Translations under genes and position numbers: made by a program
Notes under the pieces: generated by a model
Told to the model about the DNA's origin: nothing
Seen by the model: only the letters and a program-made list of their open reading frames with translations
The model's database searches: none
Origin: Eledone cirrhosa
Lineage: Eukaryota
Assembly: GCA_964016885.1 (NCBI GenBank)
Contig: OZ024745.1
Coordinates: 56,854,001 to 56,918,000, forward strand
Length of the DNA: 64,000 bases
Reading direction: 5' to 3'
Shown: piece after piece, positions 5,965 through 63,527 of the stretch
Position numbering within the stretch: the stretch's first letter is position 1
Layout of the letters: every line of letters starts with the position of its first letter

Positions 5965-6002
<38 letters not shown>

Positions 6003-6005
<3 letters not shown>

Positions 6006-6240
6006 CGTTTCTGAATTTGTTTAGAAAGATTCTTTATCTGAAATCGTGTGTTGAAACCGATATTGTTATACTTTCGGAAGGTCATGTTGCCAATAAGAAA
6101 CACACCCACCAGTTGCTTTCACTTCAATTTATTATATATTTATAAATTTGTAAATTTATAAATATATAATAAATTGAAGTGAAAGCAACTGGTGCGTGTG
6201 TTTCTTATTGGCAACATGACCCTCCCAAAGTATAACAATA
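6003..6240. mobile_element. PLE family A terminal fold-back hairpin in (TA)n
   Basis: Arms 6061-6149 and 6152-6240 are reverse complements (about 3 mismatches); 6003-6060 is an unpaired tail; same sequence as the end of the GIY-YIG element at 27703-28780. Confidence 0.9.
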
Positions 6241-10855: not shown

Positions 10856-11800
10856 ATGGATATTTTCGACCTTGAAACGGTAAACAACGTTCAGGTCAAA
10901 AGTTTAAAAGCAGCCACTGTAGATTTCACCACGACTACGACGGCTACAGTCATGCCTGTCGTCCACTCTACTGAATGTGAAGGCAAAACTCAAAAGCTAC
11001 CATCACAACCTTCTGTGTTAGCAACAGTATCATTTGAAAACGACATCACCACCACCACCGCCGCCACCGCCACAACAACAACAACAACTCAGAGCAATAA
11101 CGACAATAACACCGACAGCTTCAATGTAAACACAGATGGCGGTGGTAACAGCAACAACAAACAAAACAACAACAAAAAACACCAATAACAATAGCAAGAA
11201 TGACAACACCAACAGCAAGAGCATCAGAAGCACCACATTTGCTGCAGCAGCAGCAAAAACAGAGCGCTTATTGGATTTTCATATTAGCGATAAAGACGAA
11301 CAGTTGGCCCAGGCGTGGAGGCTAATTAAACAGGAGAAGTCCTGGGTTAACCTGACCATCCAGGACGGGGCAATATCGGCCATACAAAGGAGGGCGGTGT
11401 ACTTTCGATGTATTTCGGTGCAGACACGAAAAGTGGAACTTGCCAGCCAAGCAGAGGTCGAGGCTGCTTTGGAGTACATCGGAAGTAACATAGAGTATAA
11501 AGCGAGAGGCAAACAGTTCGGTACCATCTCGGTACTGTTCAAAACCGAGGCCCTCGCTATTAAGCACTCGGTGACCCCCTGCAGAACGGAACGCATTATC
11601 ATGCATCCGTCCTACATGGGTAAAAGGGCAGTAAAGGTCCGCATTCCCTGCATCCCACCAGGAATGAACATATGGTGGCAGCTGGGATGAGTAATCGAGG
11701 AAGGAACAGACACTACCCTCCTGGATATCAAATGGATATGCGGAATGGATTTGGAGATTATTCTACAAATGAAACCGGAGGACATGAACAACATCCTGGA
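10856..11800 (+). pseudogene. LINE ORF1-like region, frameshifted (low-complexity T/N N-terminus, RRM-like middle)
   Basis: ORFs 10856-11188 and 11136-11690 (..PSYMGKRAVKVRIPCIPPG..) lie upstream of the APE domain; the C-terminus is missing. Confidence 0.65.
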
Positions 11801-11802
11801 TT

Positions 11803-14800
11803 TTGCCCGTCTACGAACCTACAGGCGCCGGACGACCGGACTTCTTTAGGCGCCTGGAGACCTTTCTGGGTACGTCTCGCCCTTTAATGTTAGCGGGGGA
11901 CTGGAATGGCATCTTAGACGCACGCTGGGATTGTGTGGGAGTAGCCGATAGGAGCGGGGGGTGCAAAAGCTTCAAGCACCTAGTCAGCCAGTTCCAATTG
12001 TCTGACATGTATCGACTAGATTTCCCAAATTTGCCAGTATGGACATGGACCAAACGAATGGGGTCATCTAGATCGTATATAGACAGGATCTTCATTAGGA
12101 AAATAGATAGAATAGTGTAGGCTGCCCACTTTTTAAAACGGTTGCCTATTCCGATCACAAATTTGTAATCTGTACGGTCGACCTAGATAAAACGCATAAA
12201 TTAGGATCGGGTTACTGGAAGCTGAACATGTGATTTCCGACACGTAAGGCTTACAGGGACCGAGTCAACAATTTAGTTAAGCAAAAGTTGACGGGGGGGG
12301 GGGGATTATAAAAAACAGCTGGTGGTGGTGTGGGGGGGGGGGGCTCTCAAAAGAAAGATTAGAGTAACTTCGATAGAATTCAGCAAAGAACTAGCGTTAG
12401 AGCAAAAATAGAAAGGAGGGGGAGCTGGTAGATAAGTTAGACGAGGCTATTTGTAGTGGCATTGCAACTGACGTGCTAGCGGCGAGAATGGCATTAGAAC
12501 ATTTCATCAATGCAAAACACGAAGGTTGCATTGTCAGAGTTAAGGCGCGTGCGCTGAGAAACGAGGGAACCAAAGCTGTTCGATGGGCCCGCGTGGGGGA
12601 GGCGCAGTGTGGTAATAAAACCACAATTCGGTCTTTGGCGAACCGAGATGGACACGAGATAAGCGATTCCAAGCGGATGTGTGAGGCTTTTCGCCAGCAC
12701 TTTGCTCGGTTGTTCGGGGAGAGAGGCGAGTCAGAGAGCGTAGCGGATTTCAGTCCCTACCTTGACGGCTTGCCGCGCATCTCGACGGTCGACGCCGAGC
12801 GCTGCGAAAGGCCTATTACTTCAGCCGAAATTCAGGACGCCTTTGCCGGCTGCATGAGGCGCAGGTCACCCGGTTTGGATGGCCTGCCCTACGAGCTTTA
12901 CATAAATATGCCAGGCTTGTTCTCCGATCTCCTCGAAGCACTCCACTGCAACTGGCAGCAGAATGGGTGTATTCCCAGTTCTGTGAGCAGGGGAGTGGTG
13001 ACGCTGATAAAGACGAGAACAAGAGGGATAGATTAGACTACTTCAGGCCCATAACTCTGCTCAACACAGAGTTTAAGATTTTGGCCAAGGTGATAGCAAA
13101 GAGATTGGCGCTTGTCGTCGAGGATTTGGTTGGGGCGGCGCAAACTTGCGCCATCACAGCCAGGTCCATACACGACAATCTCCACCTCATGCGATACATC
13201 ATAGAGAGGGTAGGGTGTAAACCTGGCTTTAGTGGGGCACTGATCAATTTAGATCAATCGAAAGCATTCGATAGGGTCGACCATCTGTATCTGGAGTTTG
13301 TCCTCAGAGCAGCTGGCTTCGGCTCTGTCTTCAGAAGCTGGATCGTTGCAATGCACAGAGACACACGCTCGGTGTTCAAGGTTAATGGCCACCTCTCGGA
13401 ACTATTTCGGCTCTCCCACTCGGTTCGTCAAGGGTGCGCTCTCTCTTCCCTTCTGTACGTATTGACTCAAGAACCTTTACTGCGGAAGCTGGAGCTGTTG
13501 CAGGGCATGCCGCTCGAACCGGGACGTGGAAGGGCGATGTCGGCTTATGCGGACGACATCACCGTCATGGTGTCGAACACCTCAGAGATCGAGGTGGTCG
13601 GCACCTTATTGAAGGAATATGAAAGGGTGACAGGAGCCAAACTTAACCCGGAAAAGTCGGTGGGCTTGCAGCTCCGAACCTGGAGAGGCAGGCCTATGTC
13701 GTCCAACAGCGTCGTGGGGCGCTGGACGGACCGGTAAAGTTGCTCAGGGTTTGATTCGGACCAGACCTCCAGGTAGAAAGTATTTGGGACGAGGTAACGA
13801 GCAGAGTAACCTGTCTCAACCAAAAATGGGCTGGGAGGAAGCTATCACTGAAAGGTCGCGTGGAGGTGGAAAATGCGTACATCGCATCCGTCATCTACTA
13901 CCGCCTGACCGACGTCCCTTGCCCCCGTCTGCGCCTCGTCAAGTTGGAACGGCTCCTCTTCAAATTCTTGTGGAGGGGACAAGTTCCGTTGGTGAGGCGG
14001 TCCATCTGCGGAGGGCTGGGCATGCCGTGGCTAATGATGCACAGATATGCGTTGAGGCTGCGACATCTCCAGATATTCTGCCACAACGGTGAACAGGTGT
14101 GGTCGCCGTTTATCAGCCGGGCCTTTCAGCAGCACTCACTTTCCGCAGCACTCACTTTCCTCTACCAAGCGGGCAATGCGATCAGTGGAACTTCCACTCT
14201 CGAGTTTTATAGAGGATTAGTGGTGGGGAAGTGCGATGATGCACTCGGAGAAGCTTTGGACCTCGACGAAGTCGAACTGACCAGTCTATACCGGAGGACT
14301 TTCGAGCCGGGGACGATGGACAATTTCCAGAAATCCCTCGCTTCGCAGTGTTACCAGGGGGGGGGGGGGGGGGGGGGCACTGCCGGCTCGGGATAAAATC
14401 TACAAGCACGGAAGTGCTGTCAGACGGACCTGCCCAAGATGCGCACAGAACCACGAAACCGTTCTGCACGCACTTGTCCAATGTCCGTGCATTACTGACT
14501 TGTGGAGTTATGTCGAACAGCTACTGTCGCGTGTGGTACGAATCCGGCTATCGGCCGAGTCCATAGTGAAGATCGACCCACCGCCTTCCTTAGGTCAGGA
14601 AGAGCAGGAAATTTTCCTCTGTCTGGTGGCAGTTGCGAAAGAGGTTATATGGTGGACCAGGTTAAAAGGACTAAAGACAGACCCTTTTCTCTTCGGCCAA
14701 TCCCTCATCAACTTCTTCAAGTTTCACCTGGAAAGGAAGGTGAGGGTGGAGAGAGAAGTGCTACCCCCAGTACATTTTCTAAAAGGTGGATGAATGTGGC

Positions 14801-14845: not shown

Positions 14846-15177
14846 GGCTAGCTAACTCGAGGAGTGTGATGCTCTCCCTGAGTGCCCTAGAAGTGCAGGG
14901 TGGTTCAGGATTGGTGAGGTACCCGAGTTACCCCAAGGTTGTCCACCCCCTATAGGGCAATTTATTTTGTTATATGTATGCATAGTTTATTTTATATTCT
15001 TATATCTTCATTGTTAAATTAGTCTTGCCATTGTGCACTTTTACTCGACCTTATTGTAAACCCCCACTGTCCCTGTCTTTGTATTGTCCCCTACATGTCG
15101 GCCCTTGTGGCTAATAAATGAAATCATTATTATCATTATTGTTATAAAAAGAAAATATTATTATTATAAATTTGTAT

Positions 15178-15361
15178 GTGGATTGGCAGTATCGGTAGAG
15201 GGTCGGACGGCATGGTTTGACGCATCGAGTTACGGCCCTTGCCATTCTGAGTTCAAATCCCACCGAGGTTAACTTTTCTTTTCATCCTTACGGGGTCGAT
15301 AAAATAAAGTACCGGTAATGCACTGAGTAATTTCTGGCTTTGTGCCAAAAACTAGAAACAA
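15178..15361 (+). mobile_element. Meta-domain SINE (short form) with TSD-like ATTATTATTATAAATTT
   Basis: A-box TGGCAGTATCGG, B-box GAGTTCAAATCC, Meta core; flanking direct repeat. Confidence 0.9.
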
Positions 15362-15821
15362 TTATTATTATAAATTTTTATTTTTTGCGCTTTAACTAAT
15401 TTTTTTTTCTGTTAATGCGTTTTTCCTTTTTTTTCCTTTTTATTTTTCGCTTCATATCTCAAATGTATGCTTGCAGTATTTTTTGTTATAATCATGTATT
15501 AAAAAAAGAAAATAATATCAACTAATAATCTATTCAGATATAAATCTTTCAAGGGAGCTATTTAGTCAATATCAGCAAGAGATTATCCGACCACCAACAG
15601 GTGTTTAGTAATTTTATTCACTGTATTTTATTGTCTTTTTATATTCCATCACATTCTCTATGGAATCATCATAAATATGTAGCCCCTCCTGATAGAATCA
15701 CCGCCAAAATCAACAACATAATTACCACTAAAACCAAAACTATAAACAAGTGCACATCAATACTAACACTGTTTTAAAAATGCACCGCATCATCATTGTC
15801 ATTATTATTATAATGAATTCT

Positions 15822-16640
15822 GCTAGATTGGCAGTATCAGTAGTGCATCAGAAACCAGGCTTCGCAGCATAGAGTCGTGACCCTTGACGTTCTGAATTCA
15901 AATCCTGCCGAGGTGAGCTTTGCCCTTCGTCCTTACGGGGTCGATAAAATAAAGCACCAGTAACGTACTGGTGTCGATTTAATCGACTTTCCCCTCCCCA
16001 CAAATTACTCGCCTTGTGCCTATACTACAAATCGGTAGAGGGTCGGACGCCATGCTTTCCAGCATAGTTACGTCCCTTTACGATCTGAGTTCAAATCCCG
16101 CCGAGGTTGACTTTGCCTTTCATCCTTACGGGGTCGATAAAATAAAGTACCAGTAATGCACTGGATATTTGCTGGCCTTGTGCCTAAAGTAGAAACAATT
16201 ATTATTATAATGAAGGGTGGAGGTTTGGCAGTATCGGCAGAGGGTCGGACAACAGGCTTTGCAGCACAGAGTTACGCCCCTTTCTGATCTGAGTTCAAAT
16301 CCTGCCGAGGTTAACTTTGCTTTTCATCCTTACAGGGTCGATAAAATAAAGTACCAGTAATGCACTGGGATAATTGTCGGCCTTGTGCCAAAAGTAGAAA
16401 CAATTATTATTATAATGAAGTCTGGTAGTTTGCAGTATCACTAGTGCATCTTACACCATGCTTCGCGGCATAGAGTTATGCCCCTTGACGTTCTGAGTTC
16501 AAACCCTGCCGAGATGAGCTTTGCCTCTCATGCTTACGGGGTCGATAAAATAAAGTAACAGTTACGCACTGGGGTCAATTTACTCGACTTTAACCTCCAC
16601 ACGAAATTGTTGACTTTGTGCCTAAATCAGAAACCATTAT
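15822..16640 (+). mobile_element. tandem cluster of four SINE copies (long-short-short-long)
   Basis: Units at about 15822, 16032, 16217 and 16423, each with B-box and Meta core; outer copies keep an extra GGTCGATTTAATCGACTT-like segment. Confidence 0.9.
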
Positions 16641-19920: not shown

Positions 19921-21566
19921 TAGGTAGGTGTAAAGTGCGGAAGAAATTAAATGGTTTAACAATACATGCAATAATAAAAGCGCCCCCTTTATCCAATAAG
20001 ATTCTGTAAATCACCAGAGACTTATTTATTAGAGCACTAGATTTTACCAACCAAATCTACCCAAAATGTTGGTTGAACCATAAGCTTATAGTGAACGTGA
20101 GGAACGCTCTCCTTCACCCAGGACAAGTGTAAAAATGTGTAAAAATGTGTAAAAATGCCCGACCCAAGCAGAAATATACGATATTTGCCTAGGCTCGTTT
20201 GATGGAGAGGACGTATGGAATTTGCCAATATATTCTGAATATATAATACGACCTTAAATCATTCGTATGCTTCTCTCCATTGTTACTACGCCCTACGTCC
20301 TAGCCTACAATACGGACGGATATCCGAGAAACCGCTCTAAATTTCATATATGTAAAGAAAAACAGACAGAAAATTTAAAGAAAAGCGATTGACAGTTGTT
20401 CTGCATAAACCTTGGATCCAGCCAACCAATAATAGCTTTAAAAATCTAGTTAGAGGCATAAGTAGGTGAACTTTTAACCTTTCCTCAAGTAGAGATATAT
20501 TTAGCAAAGCTGCCCCCTCTACATCGAATCCCTAGAGGCAAAGGGGTTTTAAGTGAAAATGAGTTACAGCCATAGACCTACATAGCCAAAGAGAAATAGA
20601 AACCGAAATACAATATTGTTCATATCAAATTTCTCACTAAATGTCAAAACAAATCTCCTCAGACCATTCGAAACTCTAATAAACAAACACTTCCCTAGTA
20701 ATCATATGTACAGCAAGCAATGTTACAGGCACAACCTATCTTAAGATCAGCTTAACTCCATGAGCAACGTCAAAATATATTAACTAACAGACTCCATTAC
20801 CTACCTTAAATGAGTGCATCTGTAGCAACATTAGATAAAGAGTATAAAGCTGAGAAGGCTATATTTCATGAAGCAATAGGGAATGCAAAAAAAGAAAAAA
20901 CAGAGCACAACACCAGTCTCACGCCATAGGCCGGAATCAAAGAACTACAGTTCAAAGAGCGCTTTCTTAAACACTTGTCATCATTCGTTTATTGAGAGAC
21001 ACGTAACACAAAAAATTCTCCAGTTATTTCTGAAAATTGAAAGATTCTGTAGACCACGACATCACCTAGACGATTGCAGAAAGATGCAGACCTTATATGA
21101 AAGGAATCATGAATTTCCGACTCCACAGTGCTGAGATGTGGCTAATACGGAAGAGGTGATTTTACCTTAAACTCTGCCTTAATCCCGAAAGTGATCTATG
21201 GAAACCTTGTATGAACTGCCCCAAATTCGACCATTTCTTCTAGCCTATACATAACTAGTCGCCAACATCACACTAGGATTGCTCCTCCTCATACCCAATG
21301 GATAACTACGACAATATCAACAAACGCTAGGACAACTACGAGAAACGAAGGGATATCGAGTGAAAGATACATGCGACACAAAACTATTAAATCCCCCACC
21401 AAAATTTAGCCTCACGTAAATCAAAAAAAAAAATGTTTATACCAAATATTCTCAACACTAGAAATAAACAAGAACCGGAAGCATGTAGGACGCTGTGGAT
21501 TGTTGGTGCAAGCGACATTAATCCCCTACGATTAATCAGATAATTTAATATAATATAATATAATAT

Positions 21567-21749
21567 AATTGTTTCTACTTTTGGCACAAGGCCAGCAATT
21601 ACCCAGTGCATTACTGGTACTTTATCGACCCCGTAAGGATGAAAGACAAAGTTAACCTCGGCGGGATTTGAACTCAGAATGGCTAGGGCCGTAACTCAAT
21701 ACGTCAAAGCATGGCGTCCGACCCTCTACCGATACTGCCAATCCACCGT
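21567..21749 (-). mobile_element. Meta-domain SINE
   Basis: Reverse complement of the SINE consensus; flanked by TAATATAATATAAT on both sides. Confidence 0.9.
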
Positions 21750-24639
21750 AATATAATATAATGCGTGTACTTTTGATGAACATAAATATCATCACATTCC
21801 TGTCGCAATTTTCATTAATAAAAATCATTGCCGACTATTTCAATTGTCTAAGAAGCATCTTAGAAAAATATATTAACAAAGGAACAGGACAAATCAGTTT
21901 ATACTTGAAGAATTCACTGTGGCAGCGAATGTGCTAAAAAATATTATTCAATTGTCGACAAATTAGTCAATATCTTTTCGGCAGTTATAGTAAAGACGCT
22001 ATCAATGTTTACGGCACACGCGATCAGAATATTTTTCGACACGCAGTAGATGTCAAATAAAGACGCAGTTATATATACTAATGCAAAAACAACTCACTTT
22101 CAGGCCTCAGCAAATGTCTACCAAATTAGACACAGCTCTTCCCACATGCAACCTATATAATCCGGCAAGAAATTCAGTGTAGTCGCGTAGTGAATTCTCT
22201 TATATTACACATACTTATACAATTCTCTATGGGACACTATCACTTTCATTCATATATATATTATATATATATTATATATATATATATATTGGTGCAAAAC
22301 GCTTTGTTACCCATAGTAAGTGCTTTGCTGGATGAATGGAACTCTAGTTAAACTTCCAGATTCACTCCGTAGAATTTGCTAAACTATAACCACCTGTTCA
22401 AAGACGAAATACTGAAACTCTTAAAAGAATGCACTTAATTTTGTATTAAATGTCTTGATCTCTCTTTCGAATAATGTGTTCCTATCTTTTTCTTAGTTGA
22501 ACCGACTCTAATGAAATGCTGATTTCTTACATACATTACCAAGAATCGTATGCAAACGTACATTCAATTTCAATGGACAATAATTTATATCAGTTAGTCA
22601 TTTTTATTTTTGTTTAGGTGCAGAAGGTTCAACTTTCCTACTAATCACAACTTACTAGCTTAACAAGAATATATCTTTCAACTGAGCCATTTAGGTAATA
22701 TAAAATTTACCCTCACCACCATTATCGTCTTTATCAACAAATGATAAGAATTTACAAGAAACACACCTAGGAAAACAAACATTAAATTGTACTGAAAAGA
22801 GTTAATCAACACCCATTGGTGTTAGTAAGTATAATCTGTTTGTGAGATATTTCAAATTCCTAAATTGTTCTGTCGAGGGATATGTGTTAGATACGGCAGT
22901 AAGTTTTTACTTCATTGAGATTTGCATGATATTTCTAGCAAACTGATGGTTTGGTCATGTGGATGCCCTCATATTCGCTTACTCTCTCGATATATATAAT
23001 CCAATCTAGATGGTAGTGAGAGGCGAGACAATTAAAAACAGCAACTTACAATGCAAATAGAATTATTCATGCTGTTTACCTTCTGGTATTATTCCCATAT
23101 AACAGATATATGACCAAAGTTTGTCCAGCCTTTTTATGTGTATCTCTAGAAATACATGTTATAGGTACTTTTATGAATGAGACAGATTTTGCTGATATTT
23201 CTAACAGGAGGTGTAACAATCTACAGACTCCACAGTCAAACGTAGTTGAATATTAAATGATTATTGACAGGTACACTAGGGCATAACGGGAACATACAAA
23301 GTAATGTGATCTTTAATTCAATTGATTTGACTGTTGAAGATGACATTTCCAATAGAAATATGCAATAAAACTGCTAATTCTCATTTAGAATAAGCGTTGC
23401 AGCTATACGGTAACTTCTGTGCGTTCACACGCATTGATAGAAATAGAAGTGATATCACCCCGCTCCCCGATAAAAAAATATCCATAATACCTTTTTCATA
23501 TCTTGACTCTTCTGTGTTAAAGTCTTATTCATATTTACATATATTTTATTGGTTTTGCATATTTAAACCATATGAGAAGGTAGGAAATCAATTTAGGAAA
23601 TAGTATATCTAGCAAAAGAGGCAATCAATGAAACGCATGTTAAATGTTTTGTTGATAACAAAAAATGTGTTCGTTCAAAATATTAGATATTGCAGCCGAA
23701 ATTCACTCTAGCAACACTCTATCATCTTTAAAAACGATACATTAAAAATAATTGGAGACAACATTTCATTAGAGTTTCACTGGAATCGATCAGATTTGGC
23801 ACTAAATAACAACACTTGTAACAGGGTTTCCTCTGTTGCAATTATTTGAATTACCGTACTCTTGTTTTCTTCACGTGAATACAGTGAAGTGCATATTTTA
23901 CAGTTAAATTTGAAACTAATGATTTTAAATATATACAGGATAAACGTCTATGTCTTAAATCGCTATTATATATGTATCAATTTCTTCATCATCCTGAATT
24001 TCTTCATACCTGGAATTGCCTCAAATGTGCATACAACATTCCTTCAAGTATCAGTATATTTCTTATAAATATTAAATCAATTTTGGACTGTTTAATCAAA
24101 GGATATTTTATTTTATTTTATGTTACATTACGAGCTCTTCTCCGTCCTTCTAAATGTTTCTCTATATCGTGTGTATATTTCCATGGTGTTATAATAACGA
24201 GGAATCTAACTCTATCAAAAAACAATATATCGACTTATGCAACTGTCAAATAGAAACAGACTCCTTTATGTGTCAATATAGACTTTGCAATCCAGCATTA
24301 CTCTATAGATGTTTCAGAAGATTTGGCAAATATTGTAAAATGCTGGAGTTTCAGTTCTCCAACGAAACCAACTCATGATAATTTTGTTTTCCTCGTCGAA
24401 TTTCTATACATTTTACTGAAATTTATATACTATGTGGGTTCATTTGCACTATTGAAAATATCGGTCAAATTTATCTTAAATTAATTTGCTCTGTCATGGA
24501 AGTTTGTGTGAACACTGAATAATGCAGTCAGTTTTCACTGGTGGAAATTTGATAACAGCAAACTTAAAACAGAGCCAGCAGGCGCTAATTAAGAAATCTA
24601 GCATCGATTGGGATGGATGGGTGATGAAGAAGATTGAAA

Positions 24640-27202: not shown

Positions 27203-27386
<184 letters not shown>

Positions 27387-27391
27387 TATAT

Positions 27392-27641
27392 ACGTTATTC
27401 CGGGTTGAATCGGAGGTAACCACAGTAAGTAAGGTACTCAATACATAGCAGAGTATAACAGTTTCAATATAGATGAGAATCTACAGGACTAGAACTGTTT
27501 CATTCTTTAGATTCCTGATGATTTCTAAAGAATGAAACAGTTCTAGTCCTGTAGATTCTCATCTAAATTAAAACTGTTATACTCTGCTATGTATTGAGTA
27601 CCTTACTTACTGTGGTTACCTCCAATTCAATCCGGAATAAC

Positions 27642-27643
<2 letters not shown>
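27392..27643. mobile_element. family F symmetric fold-back hairpin in (TA)n with a hammerhead core at the apex
   Basis: Arms 27392-27511 and 27524-27643 are nearly complementary; loop contains CTGATGA (27515-21) followed by T-TTC-TAAA-GAA-T-GAAA. Confidence 0.8.
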
Positions 27644-27702
<59 letters not shown>

Positions 27703-27807
27703 TATTGTTATACTTTGGGAGGGTCATGTTGCCAATAAGAAACACACGCACCAGCTGTTTCACTTCAATTTATTATAATGAATTTATAATAAATTTATTA
27801 ATTTATA

Positions 27808-28320
27808 ACAGGTGAATTAGCTTACAAATTTAGAAGGGCCCTAAATAAACATAAACTCAATATTAAGATAGTAGAAAGACCAGGTACCTCCGTAAAAACA
27901 CTTATTAGCAAGACATACCCTTTCCAAAGACCCTCATGTATAGATAAGAAATGTATAACCTGTAAAATAAGCCCCCATATTAACTGTAAAACTAGAAATG
28001 TAGTGTATAGCATAAGATGTACTGAAGGACAGTGTAGAGACAAAAATATAGTGTACATAGGTGAGACAGCTCGTAGTATAGGAGAACGGATAAATGAACA
28101 CTGGCGAGACCTTCAAGATAGTAAAGAATCATCTGTACTCTACCAACATGCTAAAATAGAACACAATGGTAAATTAGAGAACATAGAAATAAAAATAGAA
28201 TCTACACACAGAAAAGACGCAATGTTTAGACAAATTACAGAGGTAATAAACATAAAAGAATTACAACCAAAATTAAATAGAAAATATGAGTGGAACAGCA
28301 ACATCACAACTTACAATTAA
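27808..28320 (+). pseudogene. PLE ORF C-terminus: Cys-rich linker plus GIY-YIG endonuclease
   Basis: Uninterrupted frame IVERPGTS..PSCIDKKCITCKISPHINCKTRNVVYSIRC..VYIGETARSIGERINEH..LYQHAKIEH..RQITE..LNRKYEW. Confidence 0.9.
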
Positions 28321-28520
28321 GGACAAAATGAAAACACACACACACATAGAACAAACAACCAACCAGTAACATGTAAATAAACAAATAAATAAATGAACAT
28401 AAACACACACAGACACCCGGATGTGGCGCATGCGCAGACTGAGCACACAACACAGACACAGAAACAAAATGGCGTAGAACAGAACAAAGGAGAGGCACAG
28501 AAACAAAGAAAGGAATCCCC

Positions 28521-28565
28521 AGTCACTGAAGATGTCATAGAGTGTGTGACGAAAGAACTATGACT
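28521..28565 (+). ncRNA. minimal type I hammerhead motif (family A)
   Basis: AGTCA-CTGAAGA-T-GTCATA-GAGTG-TGTGAC-GAAA-GAAC-TA|TGACT; 5-bp stem I, 6-bp stem II; further copies at 31217-31259(-), 32266-32309(+) and ~56955-56999(-). Confidence 0.75.
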
Positions 28566-28796
28566 ATATATAAACAACTATCTGGTTGTGGAACCAACCA
28601 ACCAACCAACCAGAAATTTATAAATTTATAAATTTATTATAAATTTATTATAATAAATTGAAGTGAAAGCAACTGGTGCGTGTGTTTCTTATTGGCAACA
28701 TGACCCTCCCAAAGTATAACAATATCGGTTTCAACACACGATTTCAGATAAAGAATCTTGCTAAATAAATTCAGAAACGATAACATATATACATAT

Positions 28797-28876
<80 letters not shown>

Positions 28877-29609
28877 ATATCATATTATATATATATATAT
28901 ATTCAAAATATTAGAATAGAAAATTCAAAGATAAAATGCGACATGGTGTATGTACATCATGGTAAATACATGCGAGAGTGTACTTCTGCTATAAGTTGTA
29001 GTAGTTTGACGATGTTACTAAAAGCAAGGTTATCTATCAACAATAAAAATAGTATCACTACTGACTGACATTATAATTACATAGGATGGGGTAAAGCTGT
29101 TATTATAAAGCAACAGTTCCACTAACATGTCTATAAGTAGCGACATCACCAACAAACTATACCCGGCTACTAATATCCACAAATGCAAAGCAAAAAATAC
29201 AATGTGTGCTGAAGGAAAAAAAACAAAACAAAAACATACGAGTTGTGACTTAATGTTAAAGTTACTGCTTACTTTGTTATATAGTTTTATTTTATTCTCA
29301 TTTGTATCATGTATACTTTATCTCATTTTAAATATATTTTATTTATTACTAGATGTAATCAAGGTTATTTACACACAAGTTCCTCCTCTACCGCATTTAG
29401 TCAGTTGAAGGTTAAAACGTAATTGCGTGGATTGGTGTGTGTCTTTGTGTGTATATATGTGTGTGGGTGCCTTGTGTGTGTTAGTCAGATCATTCTATCT
29501 AGTTCATGTGTTCAAAGAAACCGGCTAGTTACATTAGGAAGATTAAAAGACTGGTAATTTTGGACTAAGTTTCATTTAGGAATATAATGTTTAAAAAAGA
29601 AACACTCTC

Positions 29610-30810: not shown

Positions 30811-31458
30811 TAAAGCATGATACAACAATTCTTGTGTTCGTATGGAGAAATCTCTTGTTGTCAGCAGTGAGAGCATTCTCTAAACTTCTTCCATCCTATC
30901 TTTATTGTAGCTATTATACTCTCGGTGCCCCCTCTTGCTCTTCACATTATGTGTGTGTGCGTGTTCGTGTGTTTCAATATATATATATATATATATATAT
31001 TTCGTTTCTGAATTTGTTTAGCAAGATTCTTTATCTGAAATCGTGTGTTGAAACCGATATTGTTATACTTTGGGAGGGTTATGTTGCCAATAAGAAACAC
31101 ACGCACCAGTTGCTTTCACATCAATTTATTATTATAATAAATTTATAATAAATTTATAAATTTATAAATTTCTGGTTGGTTGGTTGGTTCCAAAACCAGA
31201 TAGTTGTTTATATATTGTCATAGTTCTTTCGTCACACACTCTGTGACCTCTTCAGTGACTGGGAATTCCTTTCTTTGTTTCTGTGCCTCTCCTTTGTTCT
31301 GTCCTACGCCATTTTGTTTCTGTGTGTGTTGTGTGCTCAGTCTGCGCATGCGCCACATCCGGGTGTCTGTGTGTGTTTATGTTCATTTATTTATTTGTTT
31401 TGTTACATGTTACTGGTTGGTTGTTTGTTCTATGTGTGTGTGTGTTTTCATTTTGTCC

Positions 31459-31768
31459 TTAATTGTAAGTTGTGATGTTGCTGTTCCACTCATATTTTCT
31501 ATTTAATTTTGGTTGTAATTCTTTTATGTTTATTGCCTCTGTAATTTGTCTAAACATTGCGTCTTTTCTGTGTGTAGATTCTATTTTTATTTCTATGTTC
31601 TCTAATTTACCATTGTGTTCTATTTTAGCATGTTGGTAGAGTACAGATGATTCTTTACTATCTTGAAGGTCTCGCCAGTGTTCATTTATCCGTTCCCCTA
31701 CACTACGAGCTGTCTCCCCTATGTACACTATATTTTTGTCTCTACATTGTCCTTCAGTATATCTTATG
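31459..31768 (-). pseudogene. PLE GIY-YIG endonuclease fragment
   Basis: YIGETARSVGERINEH..RQITEAINIKELQPKLNRKYEW, nearly identical to the 28003-28320 protein. Confidence 0.9.
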
Positions 31769-32215
31769 ATGAACAAACAGAAGAACAATTTAGTATAGCT
31801 AGATCCGAACTTAGAAATATTATAGAACAGTATAGCAAGAAGCATAATAGAATGGAGGCCCAGCAACTGGGAGAAAAATCTGCAAATGGCTTGCGTAAGC
31901 TCATGCAGCGCTCGCGTAATGGAGAGATAGCATGCTTTCCAATAGACAAGTCTGACAGAATGTCGGTTGACAGCCTGCCAAACTACATCCAGGCAATGCA
32001 ACCCCACATCACTAACACAAGAGAGGTAACACCACAGGAGCATGAGGATAGAGAAAAAGCCCTCAATGCCCATATGGTGATGTGGACGAATATAATGCAG
32101 CCCAACAAAAGGACTGCCAACAACTTCCAGGCCTGGAACAATGACGTGCCAGCGTTGTATGGGCTTCGAAAAGACCATAAAACGGGCTGTGACCCTGTCG
32201 CGGGACCACCAACAC
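31765..32215 (+). pseudogene. PLE ORF N-terminal region up to RT motifs 1-2
   Basis: FPIDKSDRM (DKG-like motif) and PALYGLRKDHK..GPPTR (PLE RT motif 1 KxHK and motif 2 P.RP). Confidence 0.8.
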
Positions 32216-32461
32216 GGCGTAGGACAGAACAAAGGAGAAGCACAGAAACAAAGAAAGGAATCCCCAGTCACTGAAGAGGTCACAGAGTGTGTGACGAAAG
32301 AACTATGACAATATATAAACAACTATCTGGTTGTGGAACCAACCAACCAACCAGAAATTTATAAATTTATAAATTTATTATAAATTTATTATAATAATAA
32401 ATTGAAGTGAAAGCAACTGGTGCGTGTGTTTCTTATTGGCAACATGACCCTCCCAAAGTAT

Positions 32462-32521
<60 letters not shown>

Positions 32522-32528
<7 letters not shown>

Positions 32529-34363: not shown

Positions 34364-35633
34364 ATATATATATATATATGCATTTAAATGAATGGGGACC
34401 CCAAAGATAGAATATTTCTATAACGATAGTAAATTGCTAGAAAATCGACTAAATTATGCCTATATGCGGGAAAAGCTGGCCAGCAGGCACTAAGGTGCGT
34501 CGAACTTTGTATCTTAGCGAATACCAGTGTTACATATTATGCTGAGATGCAGCTGAACCAGAATTACATCTGTAGGGGGTATTAATTCACCTTTCGAAAC
34601 TATTATTTATAGTGAGGGAATCTTCTTACAGTTGAATTATGCGATTGCGATTCGCCTATTTTCCCATTCCAAATCACACAGGGACTTAGATATTTCTTGT
34701 GATTTGTTTACTTTCTGTTGTCACACCAAGATGTGTAGTATAGCACCTTAAATCTCAGTGTATACGTGGCCAGGTTTAGAGGATTGGAGTCAATTCTAAA
34801 CATTTGGATAGGAGCTCCTACCTTAAATGCTTCAGTCCTAAGTTCAAATATCGTCTGCTTTTACAAAAGGGCCACATCTCTGCCAGGAGTTACCAACAAC
34901 AGATTGTGTCGATTTCTTGGTAGGATCAGTTAGTCAGCTGTTATGTTTTTTTATTCTTTTTTTACATGAGCACGAACTAAACTACTCCATTAATCAACAA
35001 TTTCAGTTGTTTTAAAATGATGGTAATTTGTAATTTTATGCAAACAGATATTATTGAATAATGAAGATATTCAACCATTCCTTTATAAGTGCTGAGCAGG
35101 CGTATGCAGATGATTCGACTGATGTCACATAACTCAACTATTAATTTAATGTCATTTATAGAATATTTAATGCAACTCTCAAATTACATCAACCCCCCAC
35201 CCCAGTTTCCATAATCTCCAAAATAAGACAAAATTACGATAATAGTCACTAATATCTCCCCTTCTCTACAATACTTTGCAACAGTTTCTACAGGTATGTG
35301 TATGTATATTTACGCAGGATTTTACGAGCGTGTGCTCAATTGGAACTCTATACTCTTACAGCAGCAAGGTCTGTTATGGACTTATGTACATTCATTCACA
35401 ATTGTGGATACACAAACGAGCGAATCAGCACAGAAACACACACACAGACTCACACGAAGCACATGGAAGCACACAGGCGCGGACGCAAACACACGTACAC
35501 ACAAACGTGCAGTCAAAATATCAAAGGATTATCTCCCTTGCAAACCTCCCTAATGCATAAGATACACACTCTCCAATATTTTCCCATAAATGACTGATTG
35601 AATGCACACGTACTTTATATATGTATATATATA

Positions 35634-36215
35634 TACAATATTAAATAAATGGAAAACTATATTTATAAAACCATATTTATTTCATTATATATATTTCGGG
35701 GATATCATATTAACAATATGCTATGCCTTCATCAGACAAAATACAATATAAACAGTTTTATAGATAAATATATTCGACATACCGTAATAAACATCAACTT
35801 CATTTGAAGAGGTTCACTCATATCATATTAACAATATAAATATGCCTTCATCAGACAAAATACAATATAAACAGTTTTATAGATAAATATATTCGACATA
35901 CCGTAATAAACATCAACTTCATTTGAAGAGGTTCACTGCTAGAGTGAACCTCTTCAAATGAAGTTGATGTTTATTACGGTATGTCGAATATATTTATCTA
36001 TAAAACTGTTTATATTGTATTTTGTCTGATGAAGGCATAGCATATTGTTAATATGATATCCCCGAAATATATATAATGAAATAAATATGGTTTTATAAAT
36101 ATAGTTTTCCATTTATTTAATATTGTAAATATACTCCAAGTATTTGTCGAGTGCTTTTATATCAGTTATAAATATTTACTAGTTGTAACCCAACAATTTT
36201 AAATATAACTTTACA
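35634..36215. mobile_element. family E fold-back with internal 118-bp duplication and one-sided tail
   Basis: 35634-35819 is complementary to 35942-36127; 35702-35819 is duplicated at 35820-35937; tail 36128-36215. Confidence 0.88.
36022..36076 (+). ncRNA. hammerhead-like motif (family E)
   Basis: CTGATGA(36026-32)-stem II (CATATT/AATATG core)-GAAA-TATA-TA; stem I weak. Variant at 56546-56600 has a different but pairing stem II. Confidence 0.55.
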
Positions 36216-38851: not shown

Positions 38852-38931
<80 letters not shown>

Positions 38932-38937
<6 letters not shown>

Positions 38938-39138
38938 GAAGACTAAAATCCAAAGACGGCTCGATAAGGATAAATATATATCAAATATATAAGAATCGTA
39001 GAGCAAATACTTATTAAATAACATATTAAAGTTTAAGCAAAGAATCGCTGCTTTCACCCTTAACGGGATCTTCTGAAAGCAGCGATTCTTTGCTTAAACT
39101 TTAATCTGTTATTTAATATATATATATATACATATATA

Positions 39139-39211
<73 letters not shown>

Positions 39212-39385
39212 TAACAGATTAAAGTTTAAGCAAAGAATCGCGTTAAGGGTGAAAGCAGCGATTCTTTGCTTAAACTTTAATATGTCATTTAATAAATATT
39301 TGCTCAACGATTCTTATATATTTGATATATATTTATCCTTATCGAGCCGTCTTTGGATTTTAGTCTTCAAATTGATTATTATTAC
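38932..39385. mobile_element. two family D fold-backs in inverted orientation around (TA)n
   Basis: 38932-39117 and 39205-39385 are each a hairpin with an outward-facing tail. Confidence 0.85.
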
Positions 39386-39392
39386 TATCTAT

Positions 39393-39446
<54 letters not shown>

Positions 39447-39458
39447 CACATATATATA

Positions 39459-39612
39459 TTATAAACTTCCAGCTGCTTATTTTAATACCAAGATGCACTA
39501 GGAAATAACAAATAAGAGAAGAGACAGTAAACGACAAATTACTAACCATCCGTTTATTAAGCTAACCAGCTGGAAGTTTATAATAAATTGAAGTGAAAAT
39601 AACAGGTGCGTG

Positions 39613-39613: not shown

Positions 39614-39699
<86 letters not shown>

Positions 39700-39700
<1 letters not shown>

Positions 39701-41183
39701 CGGCGATGAATTAGTTTAGCGAGGTTTTTTATATGAAATCGTGTGTCGAAACAGATATTGTTATATTTGGGGAGGGTCATATTTGCGTAATATTGCCAGA
39801 ATTAATAACAGAACACACTCACTGTTTGGTTGGTTTTCGCTTTTCGCTGTCTTTTATATCTGCGATCTAACTTACTCGGTCCTCAATGTTGCCATTGACT
39901 GACCGGCGGTCAAAAATAATACAGATACAATATAGACACAAACACATATATATAGTTTACATAATTTACATAAATCTTTCGTTGCACATCTGCAACATCG
40001 TCAGTGGTGTTATATTCATTGTTCCTCCTGTTGTGTTGTATGTCTACGCCATTTTTTATTCAGTCTGTCTATATATTTATTTATTTATTTGCTTGTTTGT
40101 TTATCTTATTTTATTTTGTCTTCTTTGCTCATGCGTTTGCGTGTGTGTATAGTGTTATGTGTGATGTGTGATTAGTGTGTATAGTGTTGTGTCTGCTGGG
40201 TGACTAGTGTGTGTTTATGTGCTTGATGTTATTGTGCTTGTGTATGTATTTATTTATCTTATTTTATTTTATTTTATTTACTTATTTATACTTCTCTTAG
40301 GTCAGTGTTGTTTGTTTGGGTGTTGTTGTTGTTCCACTCATTCTTTCTGTTTAGCTTTGGTCTTCTAATTTCTATTTCACTGGCCTCTCTGATTTGCCTA
40401 TCTGCTGGGTCTTAGCTTTGGTCTTCTAATTTCTATTTCACTGGCCTCTCTGATTTGCCTATCTGCTGGGTCATTCCTATGTTTAGATATTATTCTAATT
40501 TCTATGTTGTCTATGTTACCCTCATATTGTTGTCTAGAACATGCTAGACAACAACATGACCAAAGCTAAACAGAAAGAATGAGTGGAACAACAACAACAC
40601 CCAAACAAACAACACTGACCTAAGAGAAGTATAAATAAGTAAATAAAATAAAATAAAATAAAATAAAATAAGATAAATAAATACATACACAAGCACAATA
40701 ACAACAAGCACATAAACACACACTAGTCACCCAGCAGACACAACACTATACACACTAGTCACACATCACACATAACACTATACACAGACGCAAACGCATG
40801 CGCAAAGAAGACAAAATAAAATAAGATAAACAAACAAGCAAATAAATAAAAAAAATATATAGACAGACTGAATAAAAAATGGCGTAGACATACAACACAA
40901 CAGGAGGAACAATGAATATAACACCACTGACGATGTTGCAGATGTGCAACGAAAGATTTATGTAAATTATGTAAACTATATATATGTGTTTGTGTCTATA
41001 TTGTATCTGTATTATTTTTGACCGCCGGTCAGTCAATGGCAACATTGAGGACCGAGTAAGTTAGATCGCAGATATATATATATAAAAGACAGCGAGAAGC
41101 GAAAACCAACCAAACAGTGAGTGTGTTCTGTTGTTAATTCTGGCAATATTACGCAGATATGACCCTCCCCAAATATAACAATA
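39700..41183. mobile_element. PLE family B, 1.5-kb fold-back
   Basis: Arms ~39756-40362 and 40557-41183 are complementary; minus strand 40335-40537 encodes RQQYEGNIDNIEIRIISKHRNDPADRQIREASEIEIRRPKLNRKNEW (GIY-YIG C-terminus, ignoring a 61-bp duplication); tail 39700-39755. Confidence 0.9.
40925..40962 (+). ncRNA. minimal hammerhead motif (family B)
   Basis: CA-CTGACGA-T-GTTGCA-GATG-TGCAAC-GAAA-GATT-TA|TG; mirror copy at 39969-40006(-); stem I only 2 bp. Confidence 0.6.
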
Positions 41184-41205
41184 TATATATATATATACAC
41201 ACACA

Positions 41206-41258
<53 letters not shown>

Positions 41259-41264
<6 letters not shown>

Positions 41265-46423: not shown

Positions 46424-46503
<80 letters not shown>

Positions 46504-46570
46504 AGACACATACACACACAGACACATATATATATATAATATATATATATATAATATATATATATATATA

Positions 46571-47245
46571 TTCCTGCCAGATTGTTGAACGTCTGAAAGT
46601 ATATACTTTCCTTATGGATATGAACGGCTGAGCAGCCTAATTTGCATATCGAGTGAGTTCAGTCAGCCGGGCACACCGAAAACGATAAATGGAATAGAAT
46701 GAAACGAAATTTCATTTCTCACTCTTAGTACAGCACTTACTTAAATGTAAGTATGGATGTATGTATACGTTCATACATATATGTATACAGACGTACAGTA
46801 GTATGTATATATATATACACACATGCACACATATACATATATGCACGTATCGGTTTACCGAACATTTATTATAATGCTCGGTTTGTTTGTTTGTAAACAA
46901 ACAAACAGCCCGAATTACGCGGTACAGTGTTTAGGCAACCACGTCACCTTTTTGTTCAACACTGACACAGGAACGATGTACTAGTTTCAAGTTTATTAGC
47001 TATCGTCAGCATCGTATACCTTCTTGCCAGATGGTTGAACGTCTGAAAGTATATACTTTCCTTATGCATATTAACGGCTGAGCAGCCTAATTTGCATATC
47101 GAGTGAGTTCAGTCGGTTGGGCGCACCGAAAGCGATAAATGGAATAGAATGAAACGAAATTTCATTTCTCAATCTTAGTATGGCACTTAGTTAAATGTAA
47201 GTATGTATACGTACATACATATATGTATACAGACGTACATACATA
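46571..47245 (-). mobile_element. family I non-coding partial-tandem element (period 450 bp) in (TA)n
   Basis: 46571-46800 is repeated at 47021-47245; the spacer contains a hammerhead. Confidence 0.8.
46973..47015 (-). ncRNA. minimal type I hammerhead motif with palindromic stem III (family I)
   Basis: Minus strand ACGATG-CTGACGA-TAGCTAATAAACTT-GAAA-CTAG-TA|CATCGT; perfect 6-bp stem I, ACTAGT palindrome, weak stem II. Confidence 0.75.
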
Positions 47246-47288
<43 letters not shown>

Positions 47289-49368: not shown

Positions 49369-49556
49369 GTGGTGGATTGGCAGTATCGGTAGAGGATCGG
49401 ACACTATGCTTTGACGCATAGAGTTACGGCCCTTGCCATTCTGATTTCAAATCCCCCGAAGTTAACTTTGTCTTTCATCCTTACGGGGGTCGATAAAATA
49501 AAGTACCAGTAATACACTGGGATAATTGCTGGCCTTGTGCGAAAAGTAGAAACAAT
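49369..49556 (+). mobile_element. Meta-domain SINE with 17-bp TSD
   Basis: ATTATTTTCTTATATCT at 49351-49367 and 49555-49571. Confidence 0.92.
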
Positions 49557-50951
49557 TATTTTCTTATATCTTTTTCTCTTAGGAAATCAAGCGCCCTTCC
49601 TGGAAATAGCAAAACAGAAGTGTAAAAAAAATGAATATATGCAATGAAAAATTGCAAAAAAAAAAACACACAAGTTTGTGTTTTGGATAAGTTCGTCCCC
49701 GGATGAAAGTGATAATGACATGTATGAACTGAGCACGTGTAGAAGAGTGAAAACAAGTTAATAATAAATTATAAATAACCAGTTATCTCTGTGACATTTT
49801 AAATTATCTAACTTTATGACAATTCTATACACTTTTTTTTTTATCCTGAAGACACTCCTAAACCGACACATCTCCATCAATTTATTAAAGACGAGTTTTA
49901 TCACGGTAACTCTCGTTCTCCAAATGTTACATATATAAACACTCGAAAGTAATTATCATAGGATAAATATCTTTACAAATATATAGAAAAAACATAACGA
50001 ATGTAATACTTTTGCGGTTACCATTGTTGGTATATTAGATGAATTTTCCTCATCTTCAATTGCGAGGAATTTCGGTGGGCCACAAAATCAAAACTTGATT
50101 TCTTTTCCGAACACAGTAACTATTCTTATTCAATGTACCCGCCCCACCTGAAAGATCTATGATAGACTTGTAAAATATCGATAAATAGCGGACTGCAGTA
50201 GGGACAACGCAGTCTAGTATTTTTTAATAGCACGGATTCAATATCAGAATTATGAACAACACACGACTAAAACTTATATAGCTTACGTTACTTAGATCTC
50301 ACTTACATTAATGGGATTCCTTGTGAAAGGATATCTATACCATATTGAAAAGTATATCCTAAAAGTATAAGCTTCACTTATGAGACGGAAACCAATTCAA
50401 CTTGGAAAGAAATCTGACTCAAAAATGTACAAGCATACGCTGTATGAGAGGACTGCTGATAGAATATTTTAAAAGGTGCAACTGTTATATGGATGTGCAA
50501 ACACGAATACATACACTCGCAAATTGGTAACCCTGATACATTTAATTTCATGGAAATTTGCCTGCTTTCTTTGGAATATCACAAGATGGTATTCTCTCAC
50601 ATAAAGAATGAAACATTATAAAATATAATCCTGGTCACGAATTACGGCTTCCCAGCTAGAATGACATGGGGCTAAACAACACCTATAACAGAAACACATA
50701 ATAGACAAAATCAAATATGCCGTGAGTCTGAACTCCCCCTGGACAACAAACCCTAATCCAGCGATGAATCATTAATCCCTCGCAACTAACCTTCTGAATA
50801 ATTAAGAACTGAATTGTATTCTTCTTGCATGTCATGATATCGCAGATGGATTCAGATCATATTCATATTCAAGTAAGAGTCATTGTGTTTTTTGTGGGTG
50901 TGTAAGCGGCAGGCATAAGTTATCAAGGACTACAGTATCTAACGTTTCCTA

Positions 50952-56648: not shown

Positions 56649-56710
<62 letters not shown>

Positions 56711-56724
56711 AATATATATATATA

Positions 56725-57050
56725 TTTCGTTTCTGAATTTGTTTAGCAAGATTCTTTATCTGAAATCGTGTGTTGAAACCGATAGTGTTATACTTTGGGA
56801 GGGTCATGTTGCCAATAAGAAACACACGCACCAGTTGTTTCACTTCAATTTATTATATATTTATAAATTTATAAATTTACAAATCTACAAACTTATAACC
56901 TTATAAATTTCTGGTTGGTTGGTTGGTTCCACAACCAGATAGTTGTTTATATATAGTCATAGTCCTTTCGTCACACACTCTGTGACCTCTTCAGTGACTG
57001 GGGATTCCTTTCTTTGTTTCTGTGCCTTTCCTTTCTTCTGTCCTACGCCA
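56725..57050 (-). mobile_element. PLE family A pLTR plus tail
   Basis: Reverse complement of 28470-28780, including the hammerhead. Confidence 0.9.
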
Positions 57051-60084: not shown

Positions 60085-60216
60085 GAGAGAGATAGAGATA
60101 GAGAGAGAGAGAGAGAGATAGAGAGATAGATAGATAGAGATATAATTCAAGTAATTCAAGTAAAGAAACATTGGTTGTCAGTATTATCATTATTATTGGC
60201 CACCAAAGAAAATGCC

Positions 60217-60604
60217 GGTGAATTGGCAGTATCGGTAGAGGGTCGGACGCCATGCTTCGACGCATAGAGTTACGGCCCTTGCCATTCTGAGTTCAAATCC
60301 CGCCGAGGTTAACTTTGCCTTTCATCCTTACGAGGTCGATAAAATAAAGTTCCAGTAATACACTGGGAAATTGATGGCCTTGTGCCAAAAGTAGAAACAA
60401 TTATTATTGTTAGGTTGGTGAATTGGCAGTATCGGTAGAGGGTCGGACACCATGCTTTGACGCATAGAGTTATGGCGCTTGCCATTCTGAGTTCAAATCC
60501 CGCCGAGGTTAACTTTGCCTTTCATCCTTACGGGGTCGATAAAATAAAGTACCAGTAATGTACTGGTTATTGCTGGCCTTGTGCCTAAAGTAGAAACAAT
60601 TATT
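60217..60604 (+). mobile_element. SINE head-to-tail dimer
   Basis: Copies at 60217-60408 and 60416-60604; ATTATTGTTAG flanks the second copy. Confidence 0.92.
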
Positions 60605-61024
60605 GTTAGAGAGACCGTTTAAATTAGACATCTTCTGTTTATTATGATATACGTATTTCAAAGACGTCAAAATGTTTGCATAATAAACGTTGACGTATTT
60701 CATTAGACATTTGTTAAGTTGTAATGTTTTATTTTGTATTACGATATGACATTGTAGTTAGGAACATGATGATAGCCCTACTACATGTGAGAATGACAGG
60801 TACAGAACTGTAGGCAAGCATGGTATGCGAGATACTAACATTGTTGAAAATATGCTTGGTCACTAGTCACAGGTGTCAAATGATAAAGGTGTTCAGATAC
60901 TACGTTTACATAGTCGAATTCATGTTTCTGAAGAAAGGTGACTCATGATTAAAGAACAATTTGACATGCGGGTGGGTCATCACGTAATTCGACATCGAGT
61001 TTGATGATACTTCCTAGCCAAATA

Positions 61025-61207
61025 ATTGTTTCTACTTTTAGGTACAAGGCCAAAAATGACTCAGTACATTACTGGTACTTTATTTTATCGACCCCGTAAA
61101 GATGAAAGGCAAAGTTAACCTCGACGGGATTTGAACTCAGACTGTAAAGGGACGTAACTATGCTAGAAATCACGGCGTCCAACCCTCTACCGATACTGCC
61201 AATTCAC
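61025..61207 (-). mobile_element. Meta-domain SINE with 16-18-bp TSD
   Basis: (AC)TTCCTAGCCAAATAAT at 61009-61026 and 61206-61223. Confidence 0.92.
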
Positions 61208-63078: not shown

Positions 63079-63461
63079 GAAAATAATGGAGCTGCGGCGT
63101 TGCAAATGGGTTACATATGAAAAAAGTTTGTCCTTCATCAGTGATCTTCCAACCATCATAGGCATTTCATCGCTTTAAAGACCATATACCTCCGGTTGGT
63201 GCGAACAACGGCTAAAAAAAGTCGTTGGGACACGTAAATAGAGGGTACACGAGGGTAAACAAACAAAATGGTTAAGCAACAGAAAGTTCCTTCCTCACTT
63301 TCTGTTGCTTAACCATTTTGTTTGTTTACCCTCGTGTACCCTCTATTTACGTGTCCCAACGACTTTTTTTAGCCGTTGTTCGCACCAACCGGAGGTATAT
63401 GGTCTTTAAAGCGATGAAATGCCTATGATGGTTGGAAGATCACTGATGAAGGACAAACTTT

Positions 63462-63469
<8 letters not shown>
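63079..63469. mobile_element. apparently perfect 173-bp fold-back with one-sided tail in (TA)n
   Basis: Arms 63115-63287 and 63297-63469, 9-nt loop TCCTTCCTC, unpaired tail 63079-63114. Confidence 0.88.

Positions 63470-63527
<58 letters not shown>

Follow-up and report, generated by a model that had tools for sequence, protein, structure and literature searches.

A high-copy hammerhead repeat family of Eledone cirrhosa with the features of a non-LTR retrozyme and insertion ends like those of Penelope-like elements

What kind of repeat occupies positions 46571 to 47245 of a 64,000-nucleotide stretch of the Eledone cirrhosa genome (the window), and how was it put there? A sequence-only reading had described it as a 1.5-mer of a 450-bp non-coding unit and as a retrozyme candidate. 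The period was borne out by a direct repeat at 46565-46838 and 47015-47288 (offset 450; identity 83% overall, ~87-90% over the core), and no recognisable ORF emerged (longest ATG ORF 53 aa; seven ORFs of at least 30 aa). The minus-strand motif ACGATG-CTGACGA...GAAA-CTAG-TA|CATCGT lies where it had been placed, with the cut between 46979 and 46978, the octamer ATTTGCAT is present in each repeat at 46640 and 47090, and (TA)n tracts were found on both sides, at 46426-46571 and 47248-47285. No tRNA gene was found in the copy. Rfam returned no hammerhead family for the copy among 76 matches up to E 10; the matches that it did return were miRNA models on TA repeats, below gathering threshold.

The repeat is a high-copy, non-coding dispersed family, of which the window copy is a slightly decayed member. 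Exact matches to the 22-mer that follows the cleavage site put the family at 27,837 units or more in the whole 3.0-Gb genome (reversed control 0), and the 32-nt ribozyme core has 10,399 exact genome matches while its reversed control has none, so the hammerhead motif is not a product of chance. A DNA search with the element gave 1,692 candidates, and the best of the 40 that were scored are 93-98% identical and lie on many contigs. The 39 full monomers, 419-538 nt long, form three subfamilies, A with 15 members, B with 19, and C with five; these are mutually 83-90% identical, and their members are 97-99.5% identical to their own majority sequence. The monomers are short, non-coding tandem units with a GC content below 50%, as in retrozymes, whose units are of 150-450 bp or somewhat longer. 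Multimers and permuted copies, which had been named as the things to look for, both occur: there are long arrays (seven units), and the 5' ends of 58 single arms scatter from position 1 to 413. Two or more consecutive ribozymes have been put forward as the mark of an active element (Li et al. 2026, 10.64898/2026.07.22.740005), and the family has them, with 31 of 161 arms crossing the ribozyme junction at least twice; the window copy has one ribozyme and is unable to release a monomer alone. Our search of the literature, which covered the text of published papers, found no description of a cephalopod retrozyme. The main text of an octopus repeat annotation paper does not contain the word "ribozyme," and the giant squid has 235 Rfam hammerhead_1 matches.

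The copy carries a type I hammerhead motif at 46962..47030 on the minus strand, with the predicted cut after 46979. Proximal helix I (47015-47010 with 46978-46973, 6 bp in the family) is followed beyond a bulge by distal helix I (47030-47022 with 46972-46962, 9 bp in the family); the core CUGACGA lies at 47009-47003, a U.U at 47002/46989 forms the base of helix II, helix II with its AAUA loop spans 47001-46990, and GAAA (46988-46985) precedes a helix III made of the self-complementary ACUAGU. Across the family the same plan holds, with a core of CUGA(C/U)GA, the U.U, a 4-bp helix II closed by AAUA or AACA, GAAA, and the ACUAGU helix III. The earlier description as a minimal hammerhead is wrong for the family: the minimal (PLE-type) form is characterised by a reduced helix II and a lack of loop-loop contact, and the family has a 4-bp helix II and an extended, bulged helix I, which make it a full type I ribozyme.

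As judged from aligned copies, the changes that separate the subfamilies preserve the predicted ribozyme fold. Helix pairing held in 95.9% of cells in 22 distinct rows compared to 29-44% for slid partners, in a test whose rows are related by descent and can beat shuffles without structure. Change on both sides is limited to one helix I pair, which occurs in three forms (U-G in 8 rows, A-U in 6, G-U in 6, other in 2). The core is invariant in the majority sequences, and distal helix I fails in subfamily C. Isolated ribozymes fold with z scores of -0.8 to -1.6, which are not significant, and the isolated motif of the window copy folds no better than shuffles (z -0.45 and -0.80). Folded as a circle, the monomer reached -147 kcal/mol vs -97.9 +/- 6.1 for 100 shuffles (z -8.1), with the hammerhead helices formed in the predicted fold and internal palindromic repeats contributing to its stability. 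The ribozyme of the family would act as a dimer, by analogy with axolotl retrozyme ribozymes, which share these traits and cleave well only as dimers (PMC7229834). Cofolding of two ribozymes gave no clean double hammerhead, and in a published test one of nine predicted retrozyme dimers cleaved.

How the copies were inserted can be read from their ends. We took a census of 104 loci (L001-L111 minus seven overlapping duplicates), dropping arrays at locus edges; these loci had been chosen on the ribozyme region and cross the junction by selection, for which reason read-through was tested separately. They hold 109 arrays with a median of 669 bp, comprising 58 single arms, 49 head-to-head pairs, and two others, so that 51 of 109 are inverted; nested inversions occur in two. 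The 157 outer 3' ends fall into two zones, a "short" one at positions 200-240 (69 ends) and a "long" one at 265-290 (70 ends), with 18 elsewhere and none at the cleavage site. Because internal TA-length variation distorts a count of k-mer junctions, the ends were rechecked with anchors, which placed 119 of 137 in the two zones, about 6 of its 61 "short" rows looking like false anchors. Among the head-to-head pairs, 38 combine a short with a long end, none has two short or two long ends, and 11 have one other end (p 7e-12); the 38 are all the classifiable insertions, and their two ends are ~60 nt apart (an offset of 57-63 nt). TA-rich flanks adjoin 102 of the 157 3' ends, and a crude flank survey found TA-rich sequence at 26 of 40 3' flanks and 13 of 40 5' flanks, compared to a background of 15%. 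These family-wide ends and flanks support the earlier suggestion of priming at (TA)n. Target-site duplications, which are long in non-LTR retrozymes when present, are masked here by (TA)n; the two informative empty sites from 149 arrays show insertion without a long tract and with only a few shared bases. The priming sites are predicted to be unpaired, but so are 23 of 54 TA sites, and accessibility therefore does not explain which sites are chosen.

Inverted 5' copies, a tail at one end, and a (TA)n target are what insertions mobilised by Penelope-like elements (PLEs) show, and the family shows all three. [quoted passage not shown] All 11 PLE head-to-head pairs likewise join a short and a long end, with a tail of 58 nt. 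A candidate helper is represented in the window by a PLE 3' fragment at 27802..28790 on the plus strand, with the CX4CxxC linker, the GIY-YIG endonuclease, its own hammerhead (28520), and a long 3' end at (TA)n. The link to PLEs rests on end geometry and target, as the unit has no sequence likeness to the nine PLE 3' regions examined and no PLE protein match, with one PLE protein as query, lies within 400 nt of any array in the 104 loci. A 10-nt word common to the unit and a PLE tail is in opposite orientation and was treated as chance.

The window holds several insertions of this kind. A young PLE family with its own hammerhead has left truncated copies at 27330-28900, 30977-32523, 39614-41259, 56649-57050, and 5968-6262, with hammerhead motifs at 28520, 32265, 31261 (minus), and 57000 (minus) in which helix II is preceded by an extra base; among the PLE insertions, four head-to-head pairs each have one short and one long end. 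Elsewhere, PLE and retrozyme 3' ends meet tail to tail over one common (TA)n tract at four loci (L009, L012, L014, and L101), and the genome's PLEs belong to several families, 40-97% identical to the query, most of whose examined 3' regions contain hammerhead-like motifs. Other palindromic, (TA)n-flanked repeats at window 35628-36133, 38852-39460, and 63112-63472 may be head-to-head insertions of further non-autonomous families. The window also contains a broken non-LTR retrotransposon (11130-14793; RVT_1 domain at 12766-13737, E 7.7e-26) and a ~200-bp SINE-like repeat in many copies, some of them tandem (15150-16580, 21559-21762, 49369-49575, and 60216-61207).

We consider it likely that the family is a non-LTR retrozyme that is copied in trans into (TA)n by PLE enzymes, probably from a one-unit RNA circle. 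The template is constrained by the copies themselves. Of 27,837 downstream 22-mers, 23,332 continue exactly across GUA|C (83.8%), about what is expected for 2% divergence over nine further bases, and at every one of 30 loci selected by the downstream 22-mer, several of them sharing arrays, the copy spans the cleavage site. As copies read through the cleavage site, a cut linear monomer cannot be the usual template. Derived variants were shared at 0.55 within tandem, 0.87 within inverted, and 0.06 between loci in subfamily A (1.12, 1.43, and 0.39 in subfamily B), and 75 of 78 adjacent unit pairs belong to one subfamily, so that each insertion appears to stem from one template lineage; divergence in subfamily A is about equal within tandem arrays and between loci (0.043 vs 0.046). 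In the earlier proposal of rolling reverse transcription of a ~450-nt circle, the copying through the junction has stood up and the circle is still putative.

Instead of a circle, the same element and PLE machinery could have used a multimeric RNA that stays linear and uncut, the transcript of a small number of long master arrays, with a ribozyme that acts rarely or just trims ends. Long arrays (seven units) could supply such templates, helix III, at 1-2 bp, is weak, the long end is closely followed by a T4 run that could terminate a Pol III transcript, and PLEs, with a presumably linear RNA, obey the same end rule. We nevertheless regard this template as unlikely: 5' ends scattered round the whole unit without a common boundary or flank probably favour the circle, nested inversions are rare, and the ribozyme has been retained across subfamilies that are 83-90% identical.

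A one-unit circle copied in trans also has to be set against the possibility that the unit originated as a pseudo-LTR, since detached, in some autonomous PLE family yet to be found, of which the copies are 5'-truncated insertions. The ends are of PLE type, published vertebrate retrozymes resemble PLE pseudo-LTRs, and our check covered 104 loci with one PLE protein query; the unit may indeed have a PLE ancestry. Yet another unit, never ORF sequence, lies upstream of each unit, 83.8% of the downstream 22-mers run on into the ribozyme, and the nearest PLE matches are at least 426 nt away and, where examined, tail to tail with the array across a common (TA)n tract. Constant attachment to a PLE ORF had been named at the outset as the finding that would speak against a retrozyme, and none of the sampled arrays in the 104 loci is so attached; in these loci there is no RT and GIY-YIG ORF directly 5' of the repeat, and the PLE-match and tRNA-gene searches gave no sign of an LTR, primer-binding site, or attached RT ORF. 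We think this origin highly improbable. A satellite-like repeat spread at the DNA level, with hammerhead and promoter words as relics, would account for tandem units and internal TA-rich palindromes but can hardly be right given that retrotransposition fits 3' ends that are fixed and strand-specific, 5' ends that are random, the strict pairing of short with long ends, and the spread of copies over many contigs.

By every feature that can be tested computationally, then, the family would belong to the non-LTR retrozymes, with cleavage by its ribozyme predicted and the circle conjectural, and units, ribozyme, ends, and the lack of an attached Penelope ORF together uphold the original identification. 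Where does this leave the window copy? Alignment to the subfamily A majority sequence makes it a member of that subfamily (16 substitutions in 617 aligned bases), with a main arm at 46571..47239 on the minus strand that comprises 1.5 units of the ~442-450-nt monomer and runs from consensus position ~177, across the cleavage junction, to position 400. A 14-nt stretch on the plus strand at 47236..47249, which overlaps the main arm by 4 nt, is likely a short inverted arm, though short and AT-rich; it stops at position 223, the commonest "short" 3' end of the family, abutting the right (TA)n tract (47250..47285), and moves the right boundary from 47245 to ~47249. On the left, the (TA)n-rich target tract (46426..46570) abuts an atypical 3' end (GGCAGGAA|TATA), which departs from the family rule, as do 18 of the 157 outer 3' ends. 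The element stops 11 nt before the ribozyme core that would come next, a truncation that had been recognised with a distance of ~12 nt. This end, which had been noted as lying near an internal GTATAC, is not the usual priming site of the family: the position-400 junction is rare, with nine pattern matches at ~5 places vs ~28,000 units. The left end is a product of aberrant priming or of later deletion at an internal TATA, not of the family mechanism. Most likely, the copy kept its short end on the right and lacks the long end, with the position-400 junction in its place. It is probably inert, because it has a single ribozyme, in which a G>A change at 46992 breaks helix II and another at 47024 breaks distal helix I. 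The window copy is thus a decayed, atypical family member, of interest only as an entry point to the family.

The octamer noted in each repeat is real, but it makes better sense as a component of an snRNA-type promoter block. In the upstream unit, the block consists of an octamer-containing element at 47085..47098, a TCAG word at 47081-47078, and a TATA-like box, GTATATAC, at 47056-47049, all on the minus strand; a second copy lies at 46599..46648 (minus). The octamer element, on the ribozyme strand, matches the -78 element of U6, U6atac, and MRP at 20.4 bits, a score reached at none of 1,216,902 background positions with a profile that was built after the likeness had been noticed; host genes score 18-22 bits (13-20 when left out of the profile one at a time) and subfamily B scores 16.4. 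In five host Pol III genes (three U6, U6atac, and MRP) the element lies at -77 to -79 and a G-TATA at -31. It is absent upstream of five U2 and 11 distinct U1 genes and from eight U6- or U6atac-like copies that resemble pseudogenes. Host genes start at TATA +31, which would place a start near 47025, where the 5' strand of helix I lies. The octamer is intact in 115 of 129 units, the same as control 8-mers, and its conservation alone is uninformative.

Which polymerase might read the block is less straightforward. The distance from octamer element to TATA is 42 nt in 118 of 122 units, compared to 46-48 nt in the host Pol III genes, so the block stands 4-6 nt nearer the TATA box than in a U6-type (type 3 Pol III) promoter. 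This spacing disfavours Pol III, as do T6 and T7 runs on the sense strand of subfamilies B and C, at which Pol III would stop; spacing is conserved in insect snRNA promoters (PMC1761439). TCAG stands at -56 in all three subfamilies and is found in 10 of 10 host U1/U2 genes, 0 of 5 Pol III genes, and 12 of 1192 in the background. A 36-nt Pol II profile gave -7 to -11 bits on the units, which have no 3' box-like word. We put the chance that the block functions in transcription at about even. A review states that retrozymes do not seem to harbour promoters (PMC7761336). Related arrangements occur elsewhere in this genome. Host U1 and U2 genes have TCAGT-like words at -56 to -58, an AAAA(T/A/G)CAGA-like 3' word, and a TATA-like box at ~-31, the last of which is unusual in Pol II snRNA genes. 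Another repeat with the same octamer element and a TATA-like word ~45 nt later occurs at loci L026 and L111, in L026 as an inverted element pair. U6- or U6atac-like copies sit directly behind (TA)n tracts at three loci (L198, L199, and L208), as if retroposed into the same targets, and one rearranged array (L217) runs from the promoter block into a long TA tract three times over, skipping the ribozyme.

Some element ends pass into (TA)n through a run of TC or CA that prolongs the last template dinucleotide, giving element-(TC)n-(TA)n or element-(CA)n-(TA)n, and one exact form of this stutter occurs 47 times. At 20 stutter loci, representing 19 insertions, 18 have (TA)n right behind the run; at the far end, scored by eye, 11 have plain (TA)n without a leftover run, one bears a separate run at either end, the two oppositely oriented, and seven are uninformative. 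The simplest reading is that reverse transcriptase slipped at initiation, the rival being that the runs are pre-existing compound tracts.

From these observations we propose the following cycle for a PLE-copied retrozyme. Transcription would start at the snRNA-type block just ahead of the ribozyme, or read through from outside, and two ribozymes, probably paired via the palindromic helix III, would cut out a ~440-nt monomer that a host ligase could close into a circle. A PLE RT-endonuclease would then cut a (TA)n tract and prime synthesis from both DNA ends, using two fixed sites on the RNA (positions ~211-229 and ~279-286) that are separated by ~60 nt, with frequent stutter on the last template dinucleotide. 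Rolling synthesis would carry each cDNA a random distance beyond the ligation junction, and head-to-head joining of the pair would follow. We go further only tentatively, in suggesting as a possibility of less than even chance that a self-promoted RNA circle hijacks a PLE RT-endonuclease dimer, that two-site priming is the "tail at one end" of all PLE insertions, and that stutter by this telomerase-related RT writes microsatellite runs. Should that be so, the ~28,000 copies would preserve the PLE mechanism directly in genomic sequence and would be one source of the compound microsatellites in this genome. In the literature, the enzyme behind the spread of animal retrozymes and the role of circles as template are a matter of proposals and are treated as open (PMC7229834, PMC7761336). 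The present family offers thousands of young insertions whose ends can be read and agree with those of a PLE that resides in the same genome and has long open ORFs, and it puts names to the parts of the system, namely template, two priming sites, target, and helper. Its promoter-like block points to a way in which such elements may be transcribed, and its stutter runs suggest that PLE RT can write microsatellites.

Related processes are twin priming in L1, in which two target ends are primed on one RNA to yield an inversion, and LINE tail slippage, in which RT stutter at initiation leaves short repeats; in the present family, both priming sites are fixed, internal, and ~60 nt apart. Metazoan non-LTR retrozymes are 150-450-bp non-coding tandem units with a type I hammerhead each and a GC content below 50% (PMC7229834; PMC7761336; 10.64898/2026.07.22.740005), and they share with the present family the type of unit, a predicted circle that is highly paired and leaves the ribozyme able to fold, and co-occurring PLEs. 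The U.U at the base of helix II recalls axolotl HHR_Amex2, and the one-pair helix III with a palindromic tetraloop recalls HHR_Amex1 (both PMC7229834). RNA circles have been demonstrated for published retrozymes and are putative in the present family; mobilisation of the published retrozymes by PLEs has been proposed from co-occurrence and sequence likeness, whereas here the insertion ends themselves follow the PLE rule. The parts of the retrozyme literature consulted make no mention of (TA)n as a target, of double insertions placed head to head, or of a promoter-like block, and we found no paper on paired insertion ends of this kind. EN+ PLEs with a CX2-5CxxC linker (Neptune/Nematis type) have (TA)n targets, 5' truncation, an inverted 5' copy, a one-ended tail, and a hammerhead upstream of the 3' end, as does the present family, which differs in having no ORF, circular permutation, and 5' ends anywhere (PMC8557442). 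Inverted copies and a tail at one end are PLE hallmarks in the same source, where the tail is 30-40 bp, compared to 57-63 nt in the retrozyme and 58 nt in the local PLE. Hammerhead repeats with internal promoters also have precedents, as the schistosome hammerhead satellite has a Pol III promoter (Ferbeyre 1998, via PMC2220036) and newt satellite 2 an snRNA-type Pol II promoter (Coats 1994, via PMC2220036). The newt repeat is a precedent for the block described here, which differs from both in combining a Pol III-type octamer element at shorter spacing with a Pol II-type TCAG word.
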